NCBI GenBank assembly: GCA_050246755.1
Contig: JBFWVL010000005.1
Span: 96,001 to 160,000 of the forward strand
DNA length: 64,000 bases
From: Bacteriovoracia bacterium
Lineage (GTDB): Bacteria > Bdellovibrionota > UBA1018 > CAIPTA01
Direction: 5' to 3'
The translations under genes were made by a program, and so were the position numbers. The notes below the pieces were generated by a model. It worked only from the letters and a program-made list of their open reading frames with translations, ran no database searches and was not told the origin of the DNA. This document shows positions 3-11,942 of the stretch, one piece after another; within the stretch, counting starts at the first letter, position 1; each line of letters starts with the position of its first letter.

Positions 3-623
3 GTTTGGCTGCCTCCGATCGGCTCTTCCACCGCGTATATTTTTGGCAACCCGCAGAACCTCGCCGACACGAAAGTGGAGCTTACCTGCCGCGTGCACGA
101 CGAATGCAACGGCTCCGACGTATTCGGCTCCGATATCTGCACTTGCCGCCCCTACCTCATGTACGGCATCGAGGATGCCGCCCGCACCGCGCAGCGCGGG
201 GGCGTGGGCATCATCGTTTACTACCGCAAAGAGGGCCGCGCCCTCGGAGAAGTGACGAAGTTTCTCGTGTACAATGCGCGTAAGCGCCAAGAGGGCGGGG
301 ACACCGCCGCAACCTACTTCCGCCGCACCGAATGCGTGGCCGGTGTGGAGGACGCGCGCTTCCAGGAATTCATGCCCGACGTATTGCACTTCTTCGGGAT
401 CAAGAAAATCCATAACCTCCACTCGATGAGTAACATGAAATACGACGCCATCGTGGGCGGCGGCATCAAAGTGGTGAACCGCATCTCGATTCCCGATAAT
501 CTGATCCCCCAGGATGCCCAGGTGGAAATGGAAGCCAAGAAGGCGGCCGGCTATTTTACAAAAGAGAAAAGAAAATCGAAAGAAGAGCTGAAGAAGGTGA
601 AGGGGCGCAAAATTGAAGAATGA
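3..623 (+). CDS. GTP cyclohydrolase II-like protein, URC1 type (5' truncated by window edge)
   Basis: RVHDEC...SDICTC zinc motif, KEGRALG, SMSNMK; frame is open upstream of the listed ORF to base 3 (VWLPPIGSSTAYIFGNP); overlaps the DUF1688 gene. Confidence 0.9.
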   Translation, partial: VWLPPIGSSTAYIFGNPQNLADTKVELTCRVHDECNGSDVFGSDICTCRPYLMYGIEDAARTAQRGGVGIIVYYRKEGRALGEVTKFLVYNARKRQEGGDTAATYFRRTECVAGVEDARFQEFMPDVLHFFGIKKIHNLHSMSNMKYDAIVGGGIKVVNRISIPDNLIPQDAQVEMEAKKAAGYFTKEKRKSKEELKKVKGRKIEE

Positions 624-1830
624 GCTGAGCCTTTCCCCGTCCGAAATTGATTTTATCCTTTCGCCCGCCGCGATTCGCGAGCGCGCGCAAAAACTATTTG
701 CCCGCACCGAAGCGGCCCAGGGTGCTTTTGCGTATCACCCCGAAAAGCTTGCGTCCACCGTGAGCTACGTACTCGAAGTGATCCGAAAGAATTACCCTTC
801 ACTGGAAATTCCCTTTCATTCCCGCTGGGGGCATTTCCGCGCCGGCGGCGTGGATCGCACCAAGCTTCTCAACGATAAGCTTGCTCCGCTCAAGCCTCTC
901 GAGCGTGCCCGTGTGAAGATCGATCTCGTGATTCCCTCGGTACTTCTCGATGCTGGCGCCGGGCCGAGATGGAAATTTCGTGACCAAGACGACAAGTACT
1001 ACGGGCGTTCCGAAGGCCTTGGGCTCGCGAGTTTCTATATGTTTCTGGACGGCGCGATGAGCGCCACCGGCCGGGCGCTTCGCGCGGAAAAAGACGGGCT
1101 CAAGAACATCACCGCCGTTCAGCTCGAGAGAAGCTTCCAGGTAGACGAGCATAATCCGCTCGTGGGCGTGGAAGGCCGCGTGCAGTTGCTCAATAATCTC
1201 GCGCGCGCGCTTGAGAACAAGGAGATTTTCGCCAAGGGCCGCCCCGGCGACCTCGTGGATTATCTCCAAGGGAAATATGGGCAAGAAATTCCGGCCACTG
1301 GTTTGCTCCGCGCCGTGCTCGATGGGCTGGGGCCGATCTGGCCGGGAAGAATCGTGGCGAACGGCACCAACCTCGGCGACGTTTGGCGCCACTCCGCCCT
1401 CGGCGAGGGAATCGAGGCCCTCGTTCCTTTCCATAAGCTTTCGCAGTGGATGACCTATTCCCTCATTGAGCCCATAGAAGAGGCGGGCCTGAAAGTTACC
1501 GGCGTGGAAAATCTCACCGGCCTCGCCGAGTATCGCAATGGCGGGTTATTCATCGATTCGGGCTTGATCTCCTTCCGGAATCCCGGCGATGCCGAGAAAA
1601 CCTGGGCTCCCGATTCCGACCTCATCATCGAGTGGCGCGCCCTCACCGTGCACTTCCTCGATATCGTGGGCGCCGAAGTGCAAAAGGCCCTCGGAAAAAC
1701 TCCCCAGAACTTTCCTCTGGCGAAAGTGCTCGAGGGCGGAACTTGGTGGGCCGGGCGCTTCCTCGCGCAGAAGAACCGCGAGAGCGGCGAGCCCCCGATT
1801 AAAATTAAGAGCGACGGTACCGTTTTTTAG
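613..1830 (+). CDS. DUF1688 / URC4-family protein
   Basis: IPFHSRWGHF, SVLLDAGAG, RSEGL, FHKLSQW, TGLAEYRNGGL, LEGGTW, C-terminal SDGTVF. Confidence 0.92.
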   Translation: MKNELSLSPSEIDFILSPAAIRERAQKLFARTEAAQGAFAYHPEKLASTVSYVLEVIRKNYPSLEIPFHSRWGHFRAGGVDRTKLLNDKLAPLKPLERARVKIDLVIPSVLLDAGAGPRWKFRDQDDKYYGRSEGLGLASFYMFLDGAMSATGRALRAEKDGLKNITAVQLERSFQVDEHNPLVGVEGRVQLLNNLARALENKEIFAKGRPGDLVDYLQGKYGQEIPATGLLRAVLDGLGPIWPGRIVANGTNLGDVWRHSALGEGIEALVPFHKLSQWMTYSLIEPIEEAGLKVTGVENLTGLAEYRNGGLFIDSGLISFRNPGDAEKTWAPDSDLIIEWRALTVHFLDIVGAEVQKALGKTPQNFPLAKVLEGGTWWAGRFLAQKNRESGEPPIKIKSDGTVF

Positions 1831-1839
1831 GAAATAAAC

Positions 1840-2472
1840 ATGAAGAAAAATCTCATCCTCCTCGATCACCCTCTCCTTAAGCATAAGCTCGGCTACTTGC
1901 GCGATAAGAATACCCGCTCCGCCGAGTTCCGCGAGCTCGTGAAAGAAATCAGCCGTAGCCTGGCCTACGAGGCCATGAGCGATTGGACGGACATGGCCTC
2001 CGTTTCCATCGAGACACCGATCGCCCGCACCAAGGTGGACCGCATCCAGAATCCTCCCGTGGTGGTCTCGATCATGCGCGCCGGAAACGGGATGCTCGAT
2101 CCCGTGCTCTCGATGATCCCCTTCGCCTCGGCGGGCTTCATCGGGATTTACCGCGATAAGTTCATCAACAATACGGTGGAATACTATTTCAAGATGCCTG
2201 CCGACATCGCGGGGCGCCTCGCGATCCTCTGCGATCCCCTGGTTTCCACCGCCGATACCATGATCGCCGCCATCGATCGCCTGAAGAGCTACGAGGTGAA
2301 GAATATCAAGGTTCTATCGATCCTGATCTCGAGCTTCGCGGTGGAGAAAATCCACCATTTCCATCCCGACGTGCAGATCTTCGCTCTCGGCGTGGAAAAA
2401 GAAATCAACGAGCTCGGCTACCTCGTTCCCGGCCTAGGAGATGCGGGTGACCGGCTCTACCAAACCAAGTAA
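1840..2472 (+). CDS. upp: uracil phosphoribosyltransferase
   Basis: HPLLKHKL...LRD, IMRAG, PRPP loop DPLVSTA, YLVPGLGDAGDRLY. Confidence 0.93.
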   Translation: MKKNLILLDHPLLKHKLGYLRDKNTRSAEFRELVKEISRSLAYEAMSDWTDMASVSIETPIARTKVDRIQNPPVVVSIMRAGNGMLDPVLSMIPFASAGFIGIYRDKFINNTVEYYFKMPADIAGRLAILCDPLVSTADTMIAAIDRLKSYEVKNIKVLSILISSFAVEKIHHFHPDVQIFALGVEKEINELGYLVPGLGDAGDRLYQTK

Positions 2473-3079
2473 GCCTTTTTTGCTAGGCGTGGCCGGCGGC
2501 AGCGGGTCGGGGAAAACCTTTTTCGCGCGCGCTTTGCGCGAACGGCTCGGCCCTCACGCCTGCGAAATTATTTATCAGGATAATTTTTATTTCGATCAAT
2601 CGAAACGTTTTGATTTCGACGGCGGCTCCGTGAACTTCGACCACCCTGACGCCATCGACTTCGCGCGCCTAGCTTTGAGCCTGCGCACTTTGAAGTCCGG
2701 CCAGGCTACCGAAATTCCCATCTACGATTTCAAGACGCATAGCCGCTCTCCGTCCACTTTACGCGTGGAGCCCCTGCGCGTGATCGTCACCGATGGTATC
2801 CTTATTTTTCACTCTTCCGAAGTGCGCGCGCTCTTCGACGAGCTAGTCTTTTTCGATACTCCCGAGGAACTGCGCTTTATGCGCCGTCTGGAGCGCGATG
2901 TGGCCGAGCGCGGGCGCACGCCCGAGGGCGTGAAGAATCAGTTTTATAAACAGGTGAAGCCCATGCATGATCAATTCGTGGCGCCCTCGAAGGAGTTCGC
3001 GCACCACGTGGTGATGGACATCGGAGGCTGCGATCAGGCGCTGGAGAGTTACTGTGAGAGACTCCGCGGCGGTGCCTGA
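2441..3079 (+). CDS. udk: uridine kinase
   Basis: P-loop GGSGSGKT, NFDHPDA, IPIYDF, RRLERDVAERGR, VKPMH; start could be the GTG at 2447. Confidence 0.93.
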   Translation: MRVTGSTKPSKPFLLGVAGGSGSGKTFFARALRERLGPHACEIIYQDNFYFDQSKRFDFDGGSVNFDHPDAIDFARLALSLRTLKSGQATEIPIYDFKTHSRSPSTLRVEPLRVIVTDGILIFHSSEVRALFDELVFFDTPEELRFMRRLERDVAERGRTPEGVKNQFYKQVKPMHDQFVAPSKEFAHHVVMDIGGCDQALESYCERLRGGA

Positions 3080-5584: not shown

Positions 5585-6466
5585 TTATTCGCCCGAAGCG
5601 AAGAGACGTGGATATTTTCCGCCGGTGATTTTATTCAGGCGGGATTTAATCCCTAGATCCAGCCTGGTTTGTGCGCTGATTAAGTCGCGGTTCTGAATTT
5701 CCATATTGCGGCCATAGCATTCGATCATGGCCGTCTGAAACTTAGAGAAGGGATCCCACTGGGTTTCGAACGTACGTACGATCTGGATCATCCAGAGTGG
5801 GATCTTGCGTTCGCACTTCAGCTCCAGAATAGCATAGCGGCTCTGGTACTGGTCCTCAAAGGTTTCGTTATGGTCGTAGTGGCTCATCCGGCTTTCGTCG
5901 GGTTTTACGTTGTAGGTATTTTCTTCCATGTAACGGAGGTCGCGATCAATGGTCACGCGTGCGTACTCGTCGTGGCGGGAAAGCCAGGCGCGGCGGCGGT
6001 ATTGGCTGAGCACTTGGGGCTGAAGGCCGAAGGTTTCGTGCTTCTCCAAAAAATCGCGCATATTCTTGTCCGCGTAGGGATCGAAATCCTTAATGGCCGA
6101 AGGATTTTCGAAAAGATCCGAGATATTTTCGAGGGGAAATTTCGAGCGGCGTTTTTTACAGAAGTTTTCGATTTTCTGTTTGCTCTCGAGGTAATAAGGA
6201 GGCTTGGGATCAGCCCCATAAGAGCGGATGCGGAAGCTGGAATAGGCGAACTCGATCCCGAGCGGGCGCCGCATCATGATGCGGTTCATGCTGTCGAGGT
6301 AGAGGCTATTGATAATGTAGAAACCGCCGGGCGAGATTTGGGAATAGTAATCCATCTCGCAGTATTGGTTCACGTAGTCGGTGATCGGCTCGATCAGCGA
6401 AATCGGAATGCGGTACTTTAGCTCGTAGCGATCCAGGTTCAGGGGTGATACGGCTTTAGCGGTCAT
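5585..6466 (-). CDS. VTC-domain (polyphosphate polymerase-like, TTM fold) protein
   Basis: RYELKY, Y.INSLYLD, RIRSY, LESK, YRRRA, RVTIDR, ILELK, FSKF. Confidence 0.9.
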   Translation of the reverse strand: MTAKAVSPLNLDRYELKYRIPISLIEPITDYVNQYCEMDYYSQISPGGFYIINSLYLDSMNRIMMRRPLGIEFAYSSFRIRSYGADPKPPYYLESKQKIENFCKKRRSKFPLENISDLFENPSAIKDFDPYADKNMRDFLEKHETFGLQPQVLSQYRRRAWLSRHDEYARVTIDRDLRYMEENTYNVKPDESRMSHYDHNETFEDQYQSRYAILELKCERKIPLWMIQIVRTFETQWDPFSKFQTAMIECYGRNMEIQNRDLISAQTRLDLGIKSRLNKITGGKYPRLFASGE

Positions 6467-7803
6467 GCGCCTATCCTCCGGTTCGTTTTCGAGAGGTGGT
6501 TCAGGTCAGCGTCTTCGGCCAAGCGGCCCGTTTCGTAGAGAAATTCGATATAGAGCGTGCGGATCTCGCCCAGAAGCTTGATCCGGTAGAGGCGCTTGGA
6601 AATGCTGGCGCGTTGGAGCTCCATCGCGAGCGCGGGATCGTTGCGGAGCAAGCTGTCGGTGATATTGGCTTTGCCTTCGCTGGAATTCAGGTAGGCGGCC
6701 ACTTTTTCTTTCACGATTTCGCGCAGGGCGGCCGCATGCTCCCCGGCTTCGTCGGATTCCACCTGGGCCTCCACTTCGAGGCGCGCCACTTTAATGCGGT
6801 CACGCTGTTCGTCTAGGTCGCCGGCCGCGAGGAAAGGCAGGTTGAACGTGATGCCGAGGCTATAGGAGGTTCCGCGGCGCGTTTCGTTGGGAAACTGGTT
6901 AGAGTCCGGAATGGTGGCGCCGTCGAATTGGTACTGGTCGTAGCGGTGGCTTTTAATGGAATCCACTCCTTTGCCAACGGAAAATTTGATTCCGTCGATC
7001 CATTTGGAATTTTTCTCCAGGCCGTACTTATGTCGCGCGCGCTCCACCGTGAGGTCGTTCAGCACGTCTTCGCTGGTTAAGCTGGAGATGTCGGTCATGC
7101 CTTTGAGGCGCTCGCCGATATCCTGGGCCGATACCACTTGGTCGATCTCGAGTTCGTTCAGCGTTAGGCCGCGGCGGGAGAGGCTATGATTCACGCCCGC
7201 GATGATGCTGGAGATTTCCGCCATTTCATTTTTGGCTTTATCGATTTCCCCGGCGGCTTTCAGCACGGCTTTCGCGTCGCCCTCCGAGCGGGCGGTGATT
7301 CCGCTGAGGCGCTGTGAGCGATCGAGCACGAGATTCCATTCGTTGAGCAGGGCCTGCTCTTCACGGGCCTGTGCGGCCCGGGCCAAAAGCTCGTGGGCGG
7401 CCTTGGCGCTTTTCGACTGCAGGATTTTTCGCTCGAGCGCGGTACGCGATTTGAGGGTCTTCTCGTATTTATAATAAGAGATGGCCTCGAATATTCCCTT
7501 GGGCTTCAGCTCGAGGGACAGCTTATTAGCATACTCGCTCTCATCGCGGTCGCGAATGCGGGTCTTGATACGGTCGGTCGGGGTGTTTCCGTACACGAGC
7601 GTTTCCGAGCGGCCGAGGGAATCGCCCCAGGAATGCTCGAATCCTAGCTTGATTTCCGATACCGGATTCAAAAATTGCCGAGAGGTGGCCTCCTCTAGTT
7701 CAGGCACGCGCGCGGCCGATTTCTGGAGCAGTAGCTCCGGAGTATAGGCCGCCGCGTTCTGAGCGGCGAGTAGCGCGGTTACGGTGAGGGCAAGGCGAAG
7801 CAC
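6463..7803 (-). CDS. TolC-like outer-membrane efflux protein (divergent)
   Basis: signal peptide, long helical segments alternating with beta-strand segments (SYSLGITFNLPF); follows a HlyD-like gene; AGGAG RBS before GTG. Confidence 0.6.
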   Translation of the reverse strand: MLRLALTVTALLAAQNAAAYTPELLLQKSAARVPELEEATSRQFLNPVSEIKLGFEHSWGDSLGRSETLVYGNTPTDRIKTRIRDRDESEYANKLSLELKPKGIFEAISYYKYEKTLKSRTALERKILQSKSAKAAHELLARAAQAREEQALLNEWNLVLDRSQRLSGITARSEGDAKAVLKAAGEIDKAKNEMAEISSIIAGVNHSLSRRGLTLNELEIDQVVSAQDIGERLKGMTDISSLTSEDVLNDLTVERARHKYGLEKNSKWIDGIKFSVGKGVDSIKSHRYDQYQFDGATIPDSNQFPNETRRGTSYSLGITFNLPFLAAGDLDEQRDRIKVARLEVEAQVESDEAGEHAAALREIVKEKVAAYLNSSEGKANITDSLLRNDPALAMELQRASISKRLYRIKLLGEIRTLYIEFLYETGRLAEDADLNHLSKTNRRIGA

Positions 7804-7815
7804 AGGATTCTCCTA

Positions 7816-9594
7816 CTAACGGCCCGAACGTGGTCCGGTGATCGTAGTGATTTTTGAACCACGCGATCCCAGGTCGAAGGTGATCAAGAACAGATTTTTC
7901 TCGGCGTTATAAGCCACGCCTTCCGGGCTGTCGGCCTTGAACTTGCGGATCAGCTTGGGCTTAAGCTCGTTCTCACTGAGGCTCCAGAAGCCGCCGCAAG
8001 ACTCGCTTTTGCAGGAAGTGGTAAAGTACGCGGTATTGCCCACGAACGTGAGGTCCGTCATGCGGTAGGTGGAGCCGTCGTTCTCGTCGAACTTCACGGT
8101 TTTCCAAACTTCGAGCTCGGTATTTTCACCCTTGGCGGTGAACAAGGCATCCACGCTCGGCACGCGCAGGATGAGGGAAGCGTTATCGGCGGTCTGCGGG
8201 GCCTTGAGGCCGATATAGAGCGCGCCGTCGCGGATATCGTGGGCTTCCACCTCGAATTTGTCCATGCCGTCTTCGGCCATGGCCTGCAGCAGCGGATGTT
8301 CAGAATTTTTGATGAGCTTGCGAACCAGCTTGCCGAGGTTTACTTCCTGGGTGTCGGAGAGAACCACGCCCTTGCGTTTCATGCGCACAAAGAGGTTGCG
8401 GGCTTTTTTGATATCGCTTTCCTTCTTCGCGGTGAGGGAGGTCATCACGTAGAGGTAATCGCCCGCCACGCTCACCGATTCCATGTCGTTGATTTCTTTC
8501 ACGCCGGGAATGCGCAGGGTTTGCTCGTCCACTTCTCCGTCCTGCGACATCAGGAAGAGCCAAGGCGCGTTCGATTCGTCGGTATCGTCCGATACCACGA
8601 GGTATTTCTTGAGGTCGGGCAGATACACCGCGCCGGAAGCCTCGAAGCTGGATTTGTCGGAGAGCGAGGGGGGTAGCTTCACTTGCACGGGCGCCTGGCC
8701 TTCGGCCTTAGCGGCGGCGTCTTCGTCGTCGGCTCTGGCCACGAGGGCAGGCAGCAGGGAAACCACGGGGGAAATCTGCACTTTTTCGCCGAGGATAATA
8801 TTGCTCTCTTTAGGAATTTCAATCATCACTTCGCGGCCCCAGATGGGCACGCCGTTGCGGCCGCCGGAAGTGGGCGCTAAGCGGAGGGGAAGCTCCACGA
8901 ATCGGGCGCCCACGCTGACCACCTTGCCGTCTACCGAGCTGCCGTTATTAGTGAGCGAGCTGATGCGCACGTGGCTGCCGGGATGCACGCTGGTTTGCAG
9001 CGCTTCGTTCACAAAGCCTTGCACGAAGGTGGGGCTATCGGGGGAAATGGTCACGAGCGAAGAGAAAGCGGGCGCGCGTTCGCCGCGCTTGAAGTTCACG
9101 CTGCCCACGATGCCGTCGATTTCGGCGAACACGTAGAGGTTATTGCGCTGGCGTTCCAGGAAGCCGCGCTCTTCTTCGAGCTCGCGGAGCTCTACCGATA
9201 AAGGATCTTCTCCCACGGCGAGGCTAGTATTGCCCACGGCCTTGTTCATCTGTTCGCGCACCGAGCGCTCGGCGCGGAGCTTTTGCACTTGGGCGGTGAG
9301 CTGACGGATCTGGGTATTGAGCTCGGTCTGATTGAGCTCAATCAGGAGGTCGCCTTTTTGTACGCGTTGCCCTTGGATCACGTGCACACGCTTGATTTCC
9401 ACTGGGTACTCGAAGTTAACGTTGGATTCGCGCGAGCCGGCCACGCCGTGGAAGCTGAGATCGGGGGAGTTCAGGTAGAAACCCATGCCCACGATCACCA
9501 CCACCGCCGCGAGGATGCACCAGGCGTGGAAGGTATTTTCGGAACCGATGATTTCGTCTTTGATAAAAGTAAGGGGATTGAATCTTTTTTTCAT
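7816..9594 (-). CDS. HlyD-family periplasmic adaptor fused to a C-terminal beta-propeller (DUF3616/SdiA-regulated-like)
   Basis: N-terminal TM, V.V.QGQRVQKGDLL lipoyl half, coiled coil, A.IDG.V half; C-terminal FEASG, VVSDD, DMES, EVEA, PEGV blade motifs. Confidence 0.8.
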   Translation of the reverse strand: MKKRFNPLTFIKDEIIGSENTFHAWCILAAVVVIVGMGFYLNSPDLSFHGVAGSRESNVNFEYPVEIKRVHVIQGQRVQKGDLLIELNQTELNTQIRQLTAQVQKLRAERSVREQMNKAVGNTSLAVGEDPLSVELRELEEERGFLERQRNNLYVFAEIDGIVGSVNFKRGERAPAFSSLVTISPDSPTFVQGFVNEALQTSVHPGSHVRISSLTNNGSSVDGKVVSVGARFVELPLRLAPTSGGRNGVPIWGREVMIEIPKESNIILGEKVQISPVVSLLPALVARADDEDAAAKAEGQAPVQVKLPPSLSDKSSFEASGAVYLPDLKKYLVVSDDTDESNAPWLFLMSQDGEVDEQTLRIPGVKEINDMESVSVAGDYLYVMTSLTAKKESDIKKARNLFVRMKRKGVVLSDTQEVNLGKLVRKLIKNSEHPLLQAMAEDGMDKFEVEAHDIRDGALYIGLKAPQTADNASLILRVPSVDALFTAKGENTELEVWKTVKFDENDGSTYRMTDLTFVGNTAYFTTSCKSESCGGFWSLSENELKPKLIRKFKADSPEGVAYNAEKNLFLITFDLGSRGSKITTITGPRSGR

Positions 9595-9595
9595 A

Positions 9596-10279
9596 CTAAA
9601 TCTCCACCACCGCTTCTTGCATCATGAGGTTCACGCTTTTGGCGCCCTCGATGTTTTTCACTTCGCGCACGAATGCTTCGCGCCCGGCGTCTTTCTTAAA
9701 TTTCACGTGGTAAGCGAAATCGATGATATTGCCCTGGCCCATCTCTCGCAGGGAGACGAGGTTATAGTTTTTGCAGTGGGTATTGAGCACTTGCTCGAGC
9801 TCACGCTGCTGCTTCTCGGTGGCGGTAAGATTCAGGCGGAGGAGGGCATCGTACTGTGGACCGTGCGCGAAGGGAGTTTTCGCGAGAATCACCACCGCAA
9901 TGCCGAAGCAGATCGCGCCCATGGCGGCTACCGAGTAGTTGTGCACTCCGCAAGCGAGGCCCACCGAGAGGGCGGCGAAGATAAAGAGCATATCGCGGGG
10001 GTCTTTGATGTCGGTGCGGAAGCGCAGGAGCGAGATCGTGCCCACCATGCCGATACCGCGGGCCACGTTGTCGCCGATGGCTTGCATGGCTACGGCCGTG
10101 AGGATGGGACAGAGCACGAGGCAGTGAAGGAAGTTACGCGAATAGGAAAGGCCACGGAAAGTTTTGATATAGAGAATCGTGATCCCGCTGCCCAATACGA
10201 AAGACAATAAGAAGGCGTAGAACACCGTGAAAAGCGTTGGGTTCGCAACGGCGGACGAGAGGGATTGAATATCAAGCAT
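9596..10279 (-). CDS. DUF4956 membrane protein
   Basis: IGDNVARGIGMVGTISLLRFRTDIKDPRD, LSVGLACG, C-terminal ACT-like domain; start MLDIQ at 10279 preferred. Confidence 0.88.
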   Translation of the reverse strand: MLDIQSLSSAVANPTLFTVFYAFLLSFVLGSGITILYIKTFRGLSYSRNFLHCLVLCPILTAVAMQAIGDNVARGIGMVGTISLLRFRTDIKDPRDMLFIFAALSVGLACGVHNYSVAAMGAICFGIAVVILAKTPFAHGPQYDALLRLNLTATEKQQRELEQVLNTHCKNYNLVSLREMGQGNIIDFAYHVKFKKDAGREAFVREVKNIEGAKSVNLMMQEAVVEI

Positions 10280-10321
10280 GCGGACTGGCCTCGAGCTACA
10301 AAGTTTGCTGCGGTGCAATAT

Positions 10322-10338
10322 ATTAGGAAATTGTTAGG
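10322..10338 (-). promoter_or_regulatory. candidate OmpR/PmrA-type tandem box upstream of the VTC operon
   Basis: minus strand CCTAAC-AATTT-CCTAAT, an 11-bp-period direct repeat about 43 bp before the DUF4956 start. Confidence 0.4.
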
Positions 10339-10393
10339 AAGTAAAGTTAAATAGTCGGAAATTATGCTCTAGTCGATTATAGAAGCGTTAGAC

Positions 10394-10538
10394 CTGGCCT
10401 AGTTGATTGTTGATGGACACCGCTAACCAATTGTAGTTATTGAATAATTTCTAAAATAGTTTCTGATTTATACCAGTTGAAGCTAAGTTTGCGAAACAGC
10501 GCGCGAATGGCCGTAAAAACAACAATTAAGTAGACCAG
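10394..10538 (+). repeat. 145-bp MITE/ERIC-like element, copy 1
   Basis: ends CTGGCCTAGTTGATTGTTG ... CAACAATTAAGTAGACCAG; internal blocks shared with copies 2 and 3. Confidence 0.88.
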
Positions 10539-10580
10539 CTAGTGACAAATACCTTAGCAAAATGATAATGCATTGCATCA

Positions 10581-11942
10581 ATGCGTGTAAGTTTTCAATA
10601 TTCCGCTCTTTTCTTGATTGCCAGCCTAGTCACCGGTTGCGCGGGCGGTTTGCAATTGGACGGCAAAACTTCGCCGCGCTCGAATCGAACCGTGGTGCTT
10701 TTCCTGGTGGACGGACTGGGCGCCAAGCTCCTTCAGAGCGGAATTTCTTCGGGACTCATGCCCAATACGCGTCGTTTTTTTCTGAAAAATAAAACGGCCT
10801 TCGCGCAAGGGCAGGCCGCCTTTCCCTCGCTCACGTACCCCAATCTTTCGGGAGTTCTCACCTCGAAGGCGGTGGGCGATCAGCCCGTAACCTCCAATAA
10901 GGTGGCCGTGAACGGAAAAGTGGTGAATTATGAATCTCCTTTCCACCACGATGATCTCGAGCGGGCGGTCCGGCCCCAGAGTATTTTCACGCGTCTCGCG
11001 AGCCAGGGAAAAACCAGCGCCAGCTTTTCCTTCGTGCTCGGAGAGGATGCCACCGACCATATGGCCGTGGGCCTGCGCGAAGGCCTTGAATACCAAAGCC
11101 ATGAGTACCGCGAGCTCGACGAGCGGCTGCTCACGAATCTTGAAGAATATCTGGCCGACAAGGAAAACCCCGCCACCTGGCCTTCCTTCATCTACGTGCA
11201 TCTCGTGGGAGTAGATGGAACAGCCCACCATTTCGGCGTGCGCTCCCGGCAAACCCGCGAATACCTGGCTTGGCTCGATCGGCGGTTGGCGCCGGTTTTT
11301 AAAATCCTCGTCGCGGCCGAAAAACGCAAACAAGTAACCAGTATCCTCACGGCTGATCACGGCTTCGTGGACACGGAACGCTTCGTGGATTTGGAAAAAT
11401 TCGTCCGTAAGACCGATAAGACCCTGCTCGTGACCAACGAGAGCCGTTTCTTGGGCCTCTACCGCAAGCCCGGAGCTCGGCCCGAAGCCCTCGAAGAGCT
11501 GCTTGTCCATATTCGCTCCGTGCCCGGCGTGGAGCTCACCGTTTTGCGAAAAGAAAATCGTCTTGAATTCTCCACGGCGCGCCAAACCTTAGCCTTCGGG
11601 TATGGCCCGGCCTTATGCGAGTCCGCTAGTTTTTCGCTCGCTCCTGCAAATGAGAGCGCGAGCCTCGCCTCCGGCACGTTTCGCTGCCCGGATGAGCTCA
11701 ATCCCGTGATCCAGCCCTATCCCTTTCTCGTGAGCGGTCTCTCGCGCTACCTGAATGCCCCTAATCATCCCGACGCGGTGGTGATCGCCAAGCCCGATAC
11801 CTCGTTCACCAAAGACCATAAGGGCAACCATGGCGGCCCCACTGCCGACGAAATGCTCGTTCCCATCCTTTTGCGTAACGCGGCCATCGCCGGAGCGTTT
11901 CCTCACACTAGTGACTTGCTGAAAACCCTCGATAAGCTTTAA
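10581..11942 (+). CDS. alkaline-phosphatase superfamily nucleotide pyrophosphatase/phosphodiesterase lipoprotein
   Basis: lipobox VTGC; VDGLG, FPSLTYPN, VDGTAH, TADHG, GNHGG. Confidence 0.88.
   Translation: MRVSFQYSALFLIASLVTGCAGGLQLDGKTSPRSNRTVVLFLVDGLGAKLLQSGISSGLMPNTRRFFLKNKTAFAQGQAAFPSLTYPNLSGVLTSKAVGDQPVTSNKVAVNGKVVNYESPFHHDDLERAVRPQSIFTRLASQGKTSASFSFVLGEDATDHMAVGLREGLEYQSHEYRELDERLLTNLEEYLADKENPATWPSFIYVHLVGVDGTAHHFGVRSRQTREYLAWLDRRLAPVFKILVAAEKRKQVTSILTADHGFVDTERFVDLEKFVRKTDKTLLVTNESRFLGLYRKPGARPEALEELLVHIRSVPGVELTVLRKENRLEFSTARQTLAFGYGPALCESASFSLAPANESASLASGTFRCPDELNPVIQPYPFLVSGLSRYLNAPNHPDAVVIAKPDTSFTKDHKGNHGGPTADEMLVPILLRNAAIAGAFPHTSDLLKTLDKL

Follow-up and report, generated by a model that had tools for sequence, protein, structure and literature searches.

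We examined a 64,000-nucleotide window from a Bacteriovoracia bacterium (GCA_050246755.1, contig JBFWVL010000005.1, positions 96,001 to 160,000) that carries, all on its minus strand at 5585..10338, four genes with successive gaps of 1, 12, and −4 bp, an arrangement that the original prediction from the DNA alone had read as an operon and that we confirmed. They encode a DUF4956 inner-membrane protein (9596..10279; 227 aa from an ATG), a HlyD/EmrA-type membrane-fusion adaptor with a predicted β-propeller (7816..9594; 592 aa), a divergent outer-membrane factor of predicted TolC fold (6463..7803; 446 aa, with a GTG start and AGGAG upstream), and a VTC (Vtc4-like triphosphate-tunnel) enzyme (5585..6466; 293 aa). 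The DUF4956 protein probably starts at the ATG at 10279, since that is where the alignment with its relatives begins, extending over 227 aa; a TTG at 10318 is also open and would give 240 aa. Pfam bore out the DUF4956 (E = 1.9e-15), HlyD (HlyD_D23/HlyD_3, E = 3e-10/7e-10), and VTC (PF09359, E = 2.8e-35; 122 bits versus a cutoff of 23) domains. As had been noticed, there is no ABC, RND, or MFS gene inside the operon, and none recurs in the surveyed neighborhoods of its relatives. The cassette is a real, widespread, dedicated, envelope-spanning four-gene set, and we put at about even the chances that it is a dedicated synthase-coupled exporter of polyphosphate (polyP).

The four-gene order is conserved in other genomes. 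A GTDB scan with an alignment of the adaptor-type DUF4956, of which the best 80 of 175 loci were retained, so that the sample is biased toward the adaptor-type clade, returned all four genes in 63 loci (56 in the same order as in the window and 7 with the DUF4956 gene shifted to the end); the remainder comprised 15 loci cut by a contig end, one without the channel gene, and one without VTC in view. These cassettes come from Bdellovibrionota, Desulfobacterota, Fibrobacterota, Spirochaetales, and Myxococcia, and cultured Bdellovibrio bacteriovorus strains possess the cassette as well (records L106, L109, L113, L115, and L120). Among 80 metagenome loci, 36 were complete, 7 lacked the channel gene, and the rest were partial, mostly on short contigs. 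Within a sample of 401 genomes of the phylum, where related genomes are not independent in the counts, the N-terminal part of the adaptor was found in 45, every one of which has VTC (four more matches covered the propeller only), and the channel subfamily was found at E ≤ 1e-20 in 43, again all with VTC; one of five weaker channel matches (1e-11 to 1e-12) was also a cassette gene. VTC was matched in 77 of the 401 genomes, and when 60 of those places were taken for spread, 23 held an adaptor-type cassette, while the others had VTC mostly with DUF4956, beside CotH or other neighbors. VTC and DUF4956 occur without any adaptor in many genomes. Two loci (L156 and L212) had DUF4956, adaptor, and channel genes, with no VTC within the fetched stretch.

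The VTC protein of the window is related to the yeast polymerase Vtc4 (homology of the Vtc4 type at E = 2e-16), and Vtc4, Vtc2, and Vtc3 were the only PDB matches of the VTC profile. Nine of its residues, K17, R79, R81, K96, Y156, R158, E215, S241, and K242, correspond to Vtc4 K200, R264, R266, K281, Y359, R361, E426, S457, and K458; none of 110 adaptor-type sequences departs from them, and in 41 other sequences they are almost invariant. Mutation of those nine residues in Vtc4 lowers yeast polyP (bioRxiv 2023.01.27.525886). In the related hydrolases, three glutamates (YgiF E4, E6, and E162) bind the second metal by which water is activated, a site that is missing from Vtc4 (PMC4641920). Located by motif position in the Vtc4 alignment rather than on a structure, these positions read R13, E15, and K217 in the window protein and in 110 of 110 adaptor-type sequences. 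R13 and K217 are basic, like Vtc4 R196 and K428, and E15 is hydrolase-like and invariant. A polymerase is favored because two of the three metal-site glutamates are replaced by basic residues, and the original prediction's worry that the protein might be only a triphosphatase appears, by this site, to be answered. The guidance of polyP has been ascribed to basic residues where hydrolases have an acidic patch (PMC4641920), and the equivalents of Vtc4 R196, K294, R296, R373, and K428 are all invariant in the cassette enzymes. We judge that the cassette VTC is probably a polymerase, with E15 left unexplained.

The 446-aa protein, which had been called TolC-like, had no Pfam match, PF02321 included, and its N terminus resembles, by eye, a cleaved signal peptide with no lipoprotein cysteine. 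A monomer model built from a 27-sequence alignment reached a pLDDT of 83 and a pTM of 0.75 (pLDDT 42 from the single sequence). This model matched six outer-membrane factors, among them CusC, TolC, MtrE, CmeC, and VceC, with Z of 16.9 to 17.9 over 360 to 383 residues (root mean square deviation 4.5 to 5.1 Å, identity 5 to 11%), a seventh with Z of 12.6, and the next unrelated chain with Z of 7.6. Foldseek agreed (E = 6e-10, probability 1.0), and Atlas gave a TM of 0.69 to its OEP cluster. By sequence, the subfamily stands apart (636 clusters at 50% identity, E ≤ 1e-30): the Pfam OEP cutoff was passed by 3 of 47 scanned orthologues (1 of 21 plus 2 of 26; L057, L135, and L165), sequence-profile PDB searches with the channel alignments returned no TolC, and a profile comparison with one canonical OEP gave a probability of 18%. 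On structure prediction, fold search, and Atlas taken together, the protein is predicted to have the TolC protomer fold, so the original description is upheld by the model.

The adaptor begins with one hydrophobic anchor centered on residues 29 to 35, followed by lipoyl halves, a 65-residue hairpin, and a β-barrel that keeps P236-x-R238 and G253-R254-E255, with the barrel-loop residues R238 and R254 near-invariant. HlyD_D23 was found in 45 of 45 adaptors, and the closest known proteins were MacA and EmrA (E = 2e-12 to 2e-8). The C-terminal β-propeller, predicted at about residues 300 to 592, has conserved acidic residues (E318, D336, D370, E372, E450, D514, E558, and D574). For this propeller, described as fused to the adaptor at the outset, Pfam matches came from orthologues (DUF3616 in 14 of 45, DUF6929 in 11, Phytase-like in 9, and SdiA-regulated in 2), and the window protein itself had no Pfam match there. 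Of the 45 aligned members, 36 have the fusion; in others, the propeller is encoded separately or missing. L151 and L160 have a propeller gene of its own within the cassette, and homologues standing alone were seen in G355 (C1:288226-289065), G200, G168, G166, and G215, of which three lack a VTC match. Hairpin length was bimodal over 101 cassettes, at about 55 to 73 aa in 57 and 136 to 147 aa in 39, the long form lying mainly outside Bdellovibrionota; these classes may reflect periplasm width.

The DUF4956 protein has about five hydrophobic segments, which are MgtC-like, followed by a soluble C-terminal domain that is termed ACT in a streptococcal homologue (PMC12345266). Behind a Gly-rich segment lies R86-F87-R88, which every one of 110 adaptor-type sequences has, as do nearly all of 36 other DUF4956 sequences. 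MgtC was matched weakly in 40 of 45 members (best E = 1.7e-5), and in the comparison of DUF4956 with PF02308, the score of 18.8 bits fell below the cutoff of 31.4, which indicates a distant relative only. Oligomers of DUF4956 might form a pore lined by R74, R86, and R88. A complex prediction of VTC with DUF4956 scored 0.00 and was counted neither for nor against.

The loss of parts in natural variants suggests how these proteins work together. We compared 110 distinct cassettes in which DUF4956, adaptor, and VTC could all be seen. The hairpin, measured by alignment, was 55 to 147 aa long in all 101 that have a channel gene, and it was reduced to 0, 7, and 14 aa in three of the nine that lack one (L249, L033, and L178, respectively). 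These three fall in separate clades of a DUF4956-plus-VTC tree of 109 rows, L033 in the window's own clade, and their clade-mates mostly keep both parts. The genome of L033 (G215; 96% complete, 210 contigs) had no cognate channel elsewhere, while for L178, L249, L231, and L194 the absence of the channel was judged on the fetched stretch, so that an unlinked channel gene is possible. Because hairpin and channel were lost together in separate clades, they are likely to be a working pair. The adaptor anchor and β-barrel were retained beside DUF4956 and VTC after channel loss, the smallest remnant being 164 aa (L249), which implies that they have a role with those two proteins. The adaptor therefore appears to be tied to both ends, and the co-loss supports a real duct that would include DUF4956. 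We are fairly confident that the adaptor has DUF4956 as its inner-membrane partner.

Genes for secreted kinase-like proteins often lie close to the cassette. In 41 loci dereplicated at 80% from 109, each flanked by 2 kb or more of sequence, a CotH, Fam20C-like, or signal-bearing PPDK_N gene was present within 4 kb in 17, or in 22 if an unconfirmed 1,100-aa family is included; this count is not an unbiased test, because the families were picked after being seen at the loci. As a rough scale, two such genes are encoded in the 3.55 Mb of the source genome, one Fam20C-like (C1:1652192-1653676; L252:3193-4680) and one PPDK_N (C1:1578750-1580321; L253), neither adjacent to the cassette. CotH, often with lamin-tail domains, adjoins cassettes in Desulfobacterota and Fibrobacterota; it lies directly upstream in L033 and L249, and a Fam20C-like gene lies downstream in L178. 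HlyD/TolC and CotH had been posed as alternative partners of VTC and DUF4956, but the neighborhood survey finds both together in many loci. The Bdellovibrio neighbor family, Pfam-less and secreted-looking, has an invariant motif, D-x4-Q-x-DR-x-GN...DND, and is linked by Atlas to Fam20C/Four-jointed kinases (feature score 0.91; TM 0.53/0.66); it had no PDB or Pfam match and no profile match to CotH, and its Fam20C-like label comes from Atlas and the motif. Members include L114:12347-13696 (minus strand) and L105:6350-7996 (plus strand), and in Bdellovibrio they often adjoin the cassette. The family occurs in 64 of the 401 phylum genomes (37 of 45 with the adaptor and 27 of 356 without), an enrichment strongly confounded by kinship, and it is clearly not cassette-dependent in every genome. 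PPDK_N (ATP-grasp) proteins of about 520 to 700 aa, with N termini that look by eye like signal peptides, lie near the cassette in several lineages (e.g., L034:11339-12898).

Two further kinds of neighbor were seen. Pfam-less proteins of 1,100 to 1,300 aa (L136:4411-7854, L057:7966-11292, and L091:8352-11849) stand beside both adaptor-type and adaptor-less VTC loci, sometimes as two divergent copies. Kinase-like motifs were seen in them by eye, but a kinase was not confirmed by Pfam, PDB, homologue search, or profile comparisons (probability <2%), which is why the family was counted apart. Outside Bdellovibrionota, secreted proteins with a Cthe_2159 β-helix or multiple lamin-tail domains repeatedly flank the cassette (L157:473-2914 and 8110-10476, L166:4410-6890, L170:12048-13868, and L151:12883-14958) and are candidate polyP- or cation-binding partners.

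In the window, the cassette is flanked by a convergent gene for a YkuD-type protein and by a divergent gene of the phosphodiesterase/alkaline-phosphatase superfamily (10581-11942, plus strand) with a lipoprotein-like N terminus, whose tie to the cassette is probably incidental because a homologue was found in just one other searched locus (L094). The AT-rich divergent intergenic region (10280..10580) is a probable promoter region; its sigma-70-like matches (5 versus 3.8 expected) were at chance level, as were terminator matches. GC content at third codon positions was 0.68 to 0.75 in the cassette and 0.64 to 0.76 in three flanking genes. Further off, at 75-3079 on the plus strand, are what we take from the translations alone to be the end of a GTP-cyclohydrolase-II-like gene, a URC4-like gene, and genes for uracil phosphoribosyltransferase and uridine kinase, presumably for uracil salvage or catabolism. 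The source genome (95.7% complete) has a single VTC gene, both ppk1 and ppk2, for internal polyP, and no CotH match at that completeness; its nearest named relatives are labeled Bdellovibrionales, Oligoflexia, or Bdellovibrionota.

In the mechanism that we propose, the Vtc4-like enzyme would use ATP to build polyP where DUF4956 faces the cytoplasm. From there, the chain would cross the inner membrane through a DUF4956 oligomer, enter the adaptor, and leave by the TolC-fold channel, the direction of transport being presumably outward. In the periplasm, cation binding or processing of the polymer may fall to the propeller, and the channel-less short versions would deliver the product to the periplasm only. 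Outside the cytoplasm, the product could serve as a cation-binding surface polymer or, most attractively, as a phosphoryl donor. The fuller form of the latter idea, that exported polyP is the donor for secreted CotH, Fam20C-like, and PPDK_N/ATP-grasp kinases in the periplasm or extracellularly, where ATP is scarce, and that polymer synthesis powers a fourth inner-membrane engine for TolC, is tentative, and we think it more doubtful than the export itself.

Several observations weigh against synthase-coupled export of polyP or against its link to kinases. The analogy with yeast, on which the original prediction leaned, holds for the Vtc4-type enzyme and fails for its membrane partner: none of the 45 DUF4956 members matched DUF202, which we take to be the Vtc1 family, and a PDB search gave no match to Vtc1. 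Together with the 40 MgtC matches, this rules out DUF4956 as a homologue of Vtc1 or of the Vtc4 channel; since DUF4956 is MgtC-like and not Vtc1-like, the cassette is not a yeast VTC complex, and the analogy is mechanistic only. In yeast, five three-helix domains assemble into the pore, and basic residues line it (PMC9911596; bioRxiv 2023.01.27.525886). At the tunnel's acceptor end, E15 takes the place of Vtc4 T198 in 110 of 110 sequences, and residue matches can mislead, because AtTTM3 shares the Vtc4 tunnel residues and yet is a hydrolase (PMC4641920). Six of the nine channel-less cassettes retain a full hairpin: L078 has an unassigned 334-aa open reading frame where the channel gene would lie, L191, L194, L195, and L198 are closely related to loci with a channel gene after VTC, and for L231, with no channel match in the fetched stretch, we offer no explanation. 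Kinase-like neighbors were absent from 19 of the 41 loci and from this window, and the adaptor-less genomes with the Fam20C-like kinase include the single-contig G024, which has no VTC match. In a streptococcus, deletion of the VTC homologue left aggregation intact, unlike deletion of DUF4956 or CotH (PMC12345266), so the VTC and DUF4956 genes do not necessarily form a single functional unit in that organism.

The same duct might run inward, importing polyP or another phosphate polymer from outside for a VTC enzyme working in reverse, with the phosphate passed to ADP or freed, as a scavenging system. The invariance of E15, the phytase-like propeller of nine members, and nearby phosphate-scavenging genes (the divergent phosphodiesterase-family gene here, a metallophosphoesterase, and PhoX, a PHO4 transporter, and a phytase-like gene in single loci) would suit it; these neighbors vary between loci, two of the three second-site glutamates are basic, and adaptor-TolC assemblies are known as exporters, so we regard uptake as unlikely. 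A regulatory role is conceivable for DUF4956 because MgtC itself, its relative, acts by binding and activating PhoR (PMC6658541). DUF4956 would then be an MgtC-like regulator or scaffold, the product of VTC would be cytoplasmic polyP or a short phosphate signal, and a pump encoded elsewhere would serve the adaptor and channel, in line with the many genomes that hold VTC and DUF4956 without an adaptor and with the altered Pel levels after a streptococcal DUF4956 deletion (PMC12345266). The anchor and β-barrel kept beside DUF4956 and VTC after channel loss, the lack of a pump family that recurs next to the cassette, and the finding of the adaptor and channel subfamilies only with VTC in the 401 genomes make this improbable. 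A synthase-coupled exporter with other cargo, such as tripolyphosphate, a nucleotide, or a phosphorylated glycan or small molecule in place of long-chain polyP, seems to us similarly improbable: the exchange of T198 for E15, the Gram-positive VTC-DUF4956-CotH sets that adjoin a Pel polysaccharide locus (PMC7112168), and the adaptor-less loci that adjoin glycosyltransferase or O-antigen ligase genes speak for it, and the invariant polyP-guiding basic residues and the lack of recurrent glycan genes beside the adaptor-type cassette speak against it.

We found no description of VTC or DUF4956 with an adaptor or TolC in the mainly open-access literature covered, and PMC13318637 and PMC7332688 added nothing further on bacterial VTC. 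The hydrolase-site comparison, the co-loss of hairpin and channel, and the broader set of kinase-like neighbors are new here. If polyP export is correct, it would give a function to bacterial VTC proteins, a route of polyP synthesis and secretion apart from PPK1/PPK2, and a possible answer to where secreted bacterial kinases obtain their phosphate donor; the presence of the cassette in cultured B. bacteriovorus makes it directly testable.

Compared with the eukaryotic VTC complex (Vtc4/Vtc3/Vtc1; PDB 3g3q, 7ytj, and 8i6v), the cassette has a homologous catalytic tunnel domain with the nine essential residues, and the proposed coupling of synthesis to membrane passage is alike. It differs in that the enzyme is separate and soluble, with E15 for T198, no membrane domain, and no SPX domain (SPX had no match in any of the four cassette proteins), in that the partner is MgtC-like and has no three-helix Vtc1-type domain, and in the added adaptor and outer-membrane channel. 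Its enzyme shares the tunnel fold family and metal site 1 with the TTM/CYTH tripolyphosphatases (YgiF and AtTTM3), but its second metal site is without two of the three glutamates, and none of 45 VTC members matched CYTH. The Gram-positive pel accessory genes for CotH, a polyP polymerase, and DUF4956 (PMC7112168; PMC12345266) belong to the same VTC and DUF4956 families, often with a secreted CotH, and come without an adaptor or channel. There, streptococcal aggregation fell by more than half in one medium upon deletion of DUF4956 or CotH, and each of the four accessory mutants was still able to aggregate (PMC12345266). No CotH-VTC-DUF4956 trio away from pel loci was found in the S. intermedius paper; the loci surveyed here have it in the absence of pel.

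Polymers such as alginate, cellulose, and Pel are secreted in a synthase-dependent manner, and the proposed logic of the cassette, polymerization at the inner membrane and extrusion through a dedicated envelope channel, is shared with them; unlike them, it has no glycosyltransferase, its proposed polymer is inorganic, and its exit is a TolC-fold protein, not a porin. With EmrAB-TolC, MacAB-TolC, and HlyBD-TolC, it shares an anchored adaptor, nearest to MacA/EmrA, and a TolC-fold channel, and it departs from these tripartite efflux and type I secretion systems in having no ABC, RND, or MFS gene, a dedicated and very divergent channel, and a propeller on the adaptor. The known engines of TolC-dependent exporters are of the ABC, RND, or MFS type; an MgtC-like protein working with a polymerase would, if our reading is true, be a fourth and new type.

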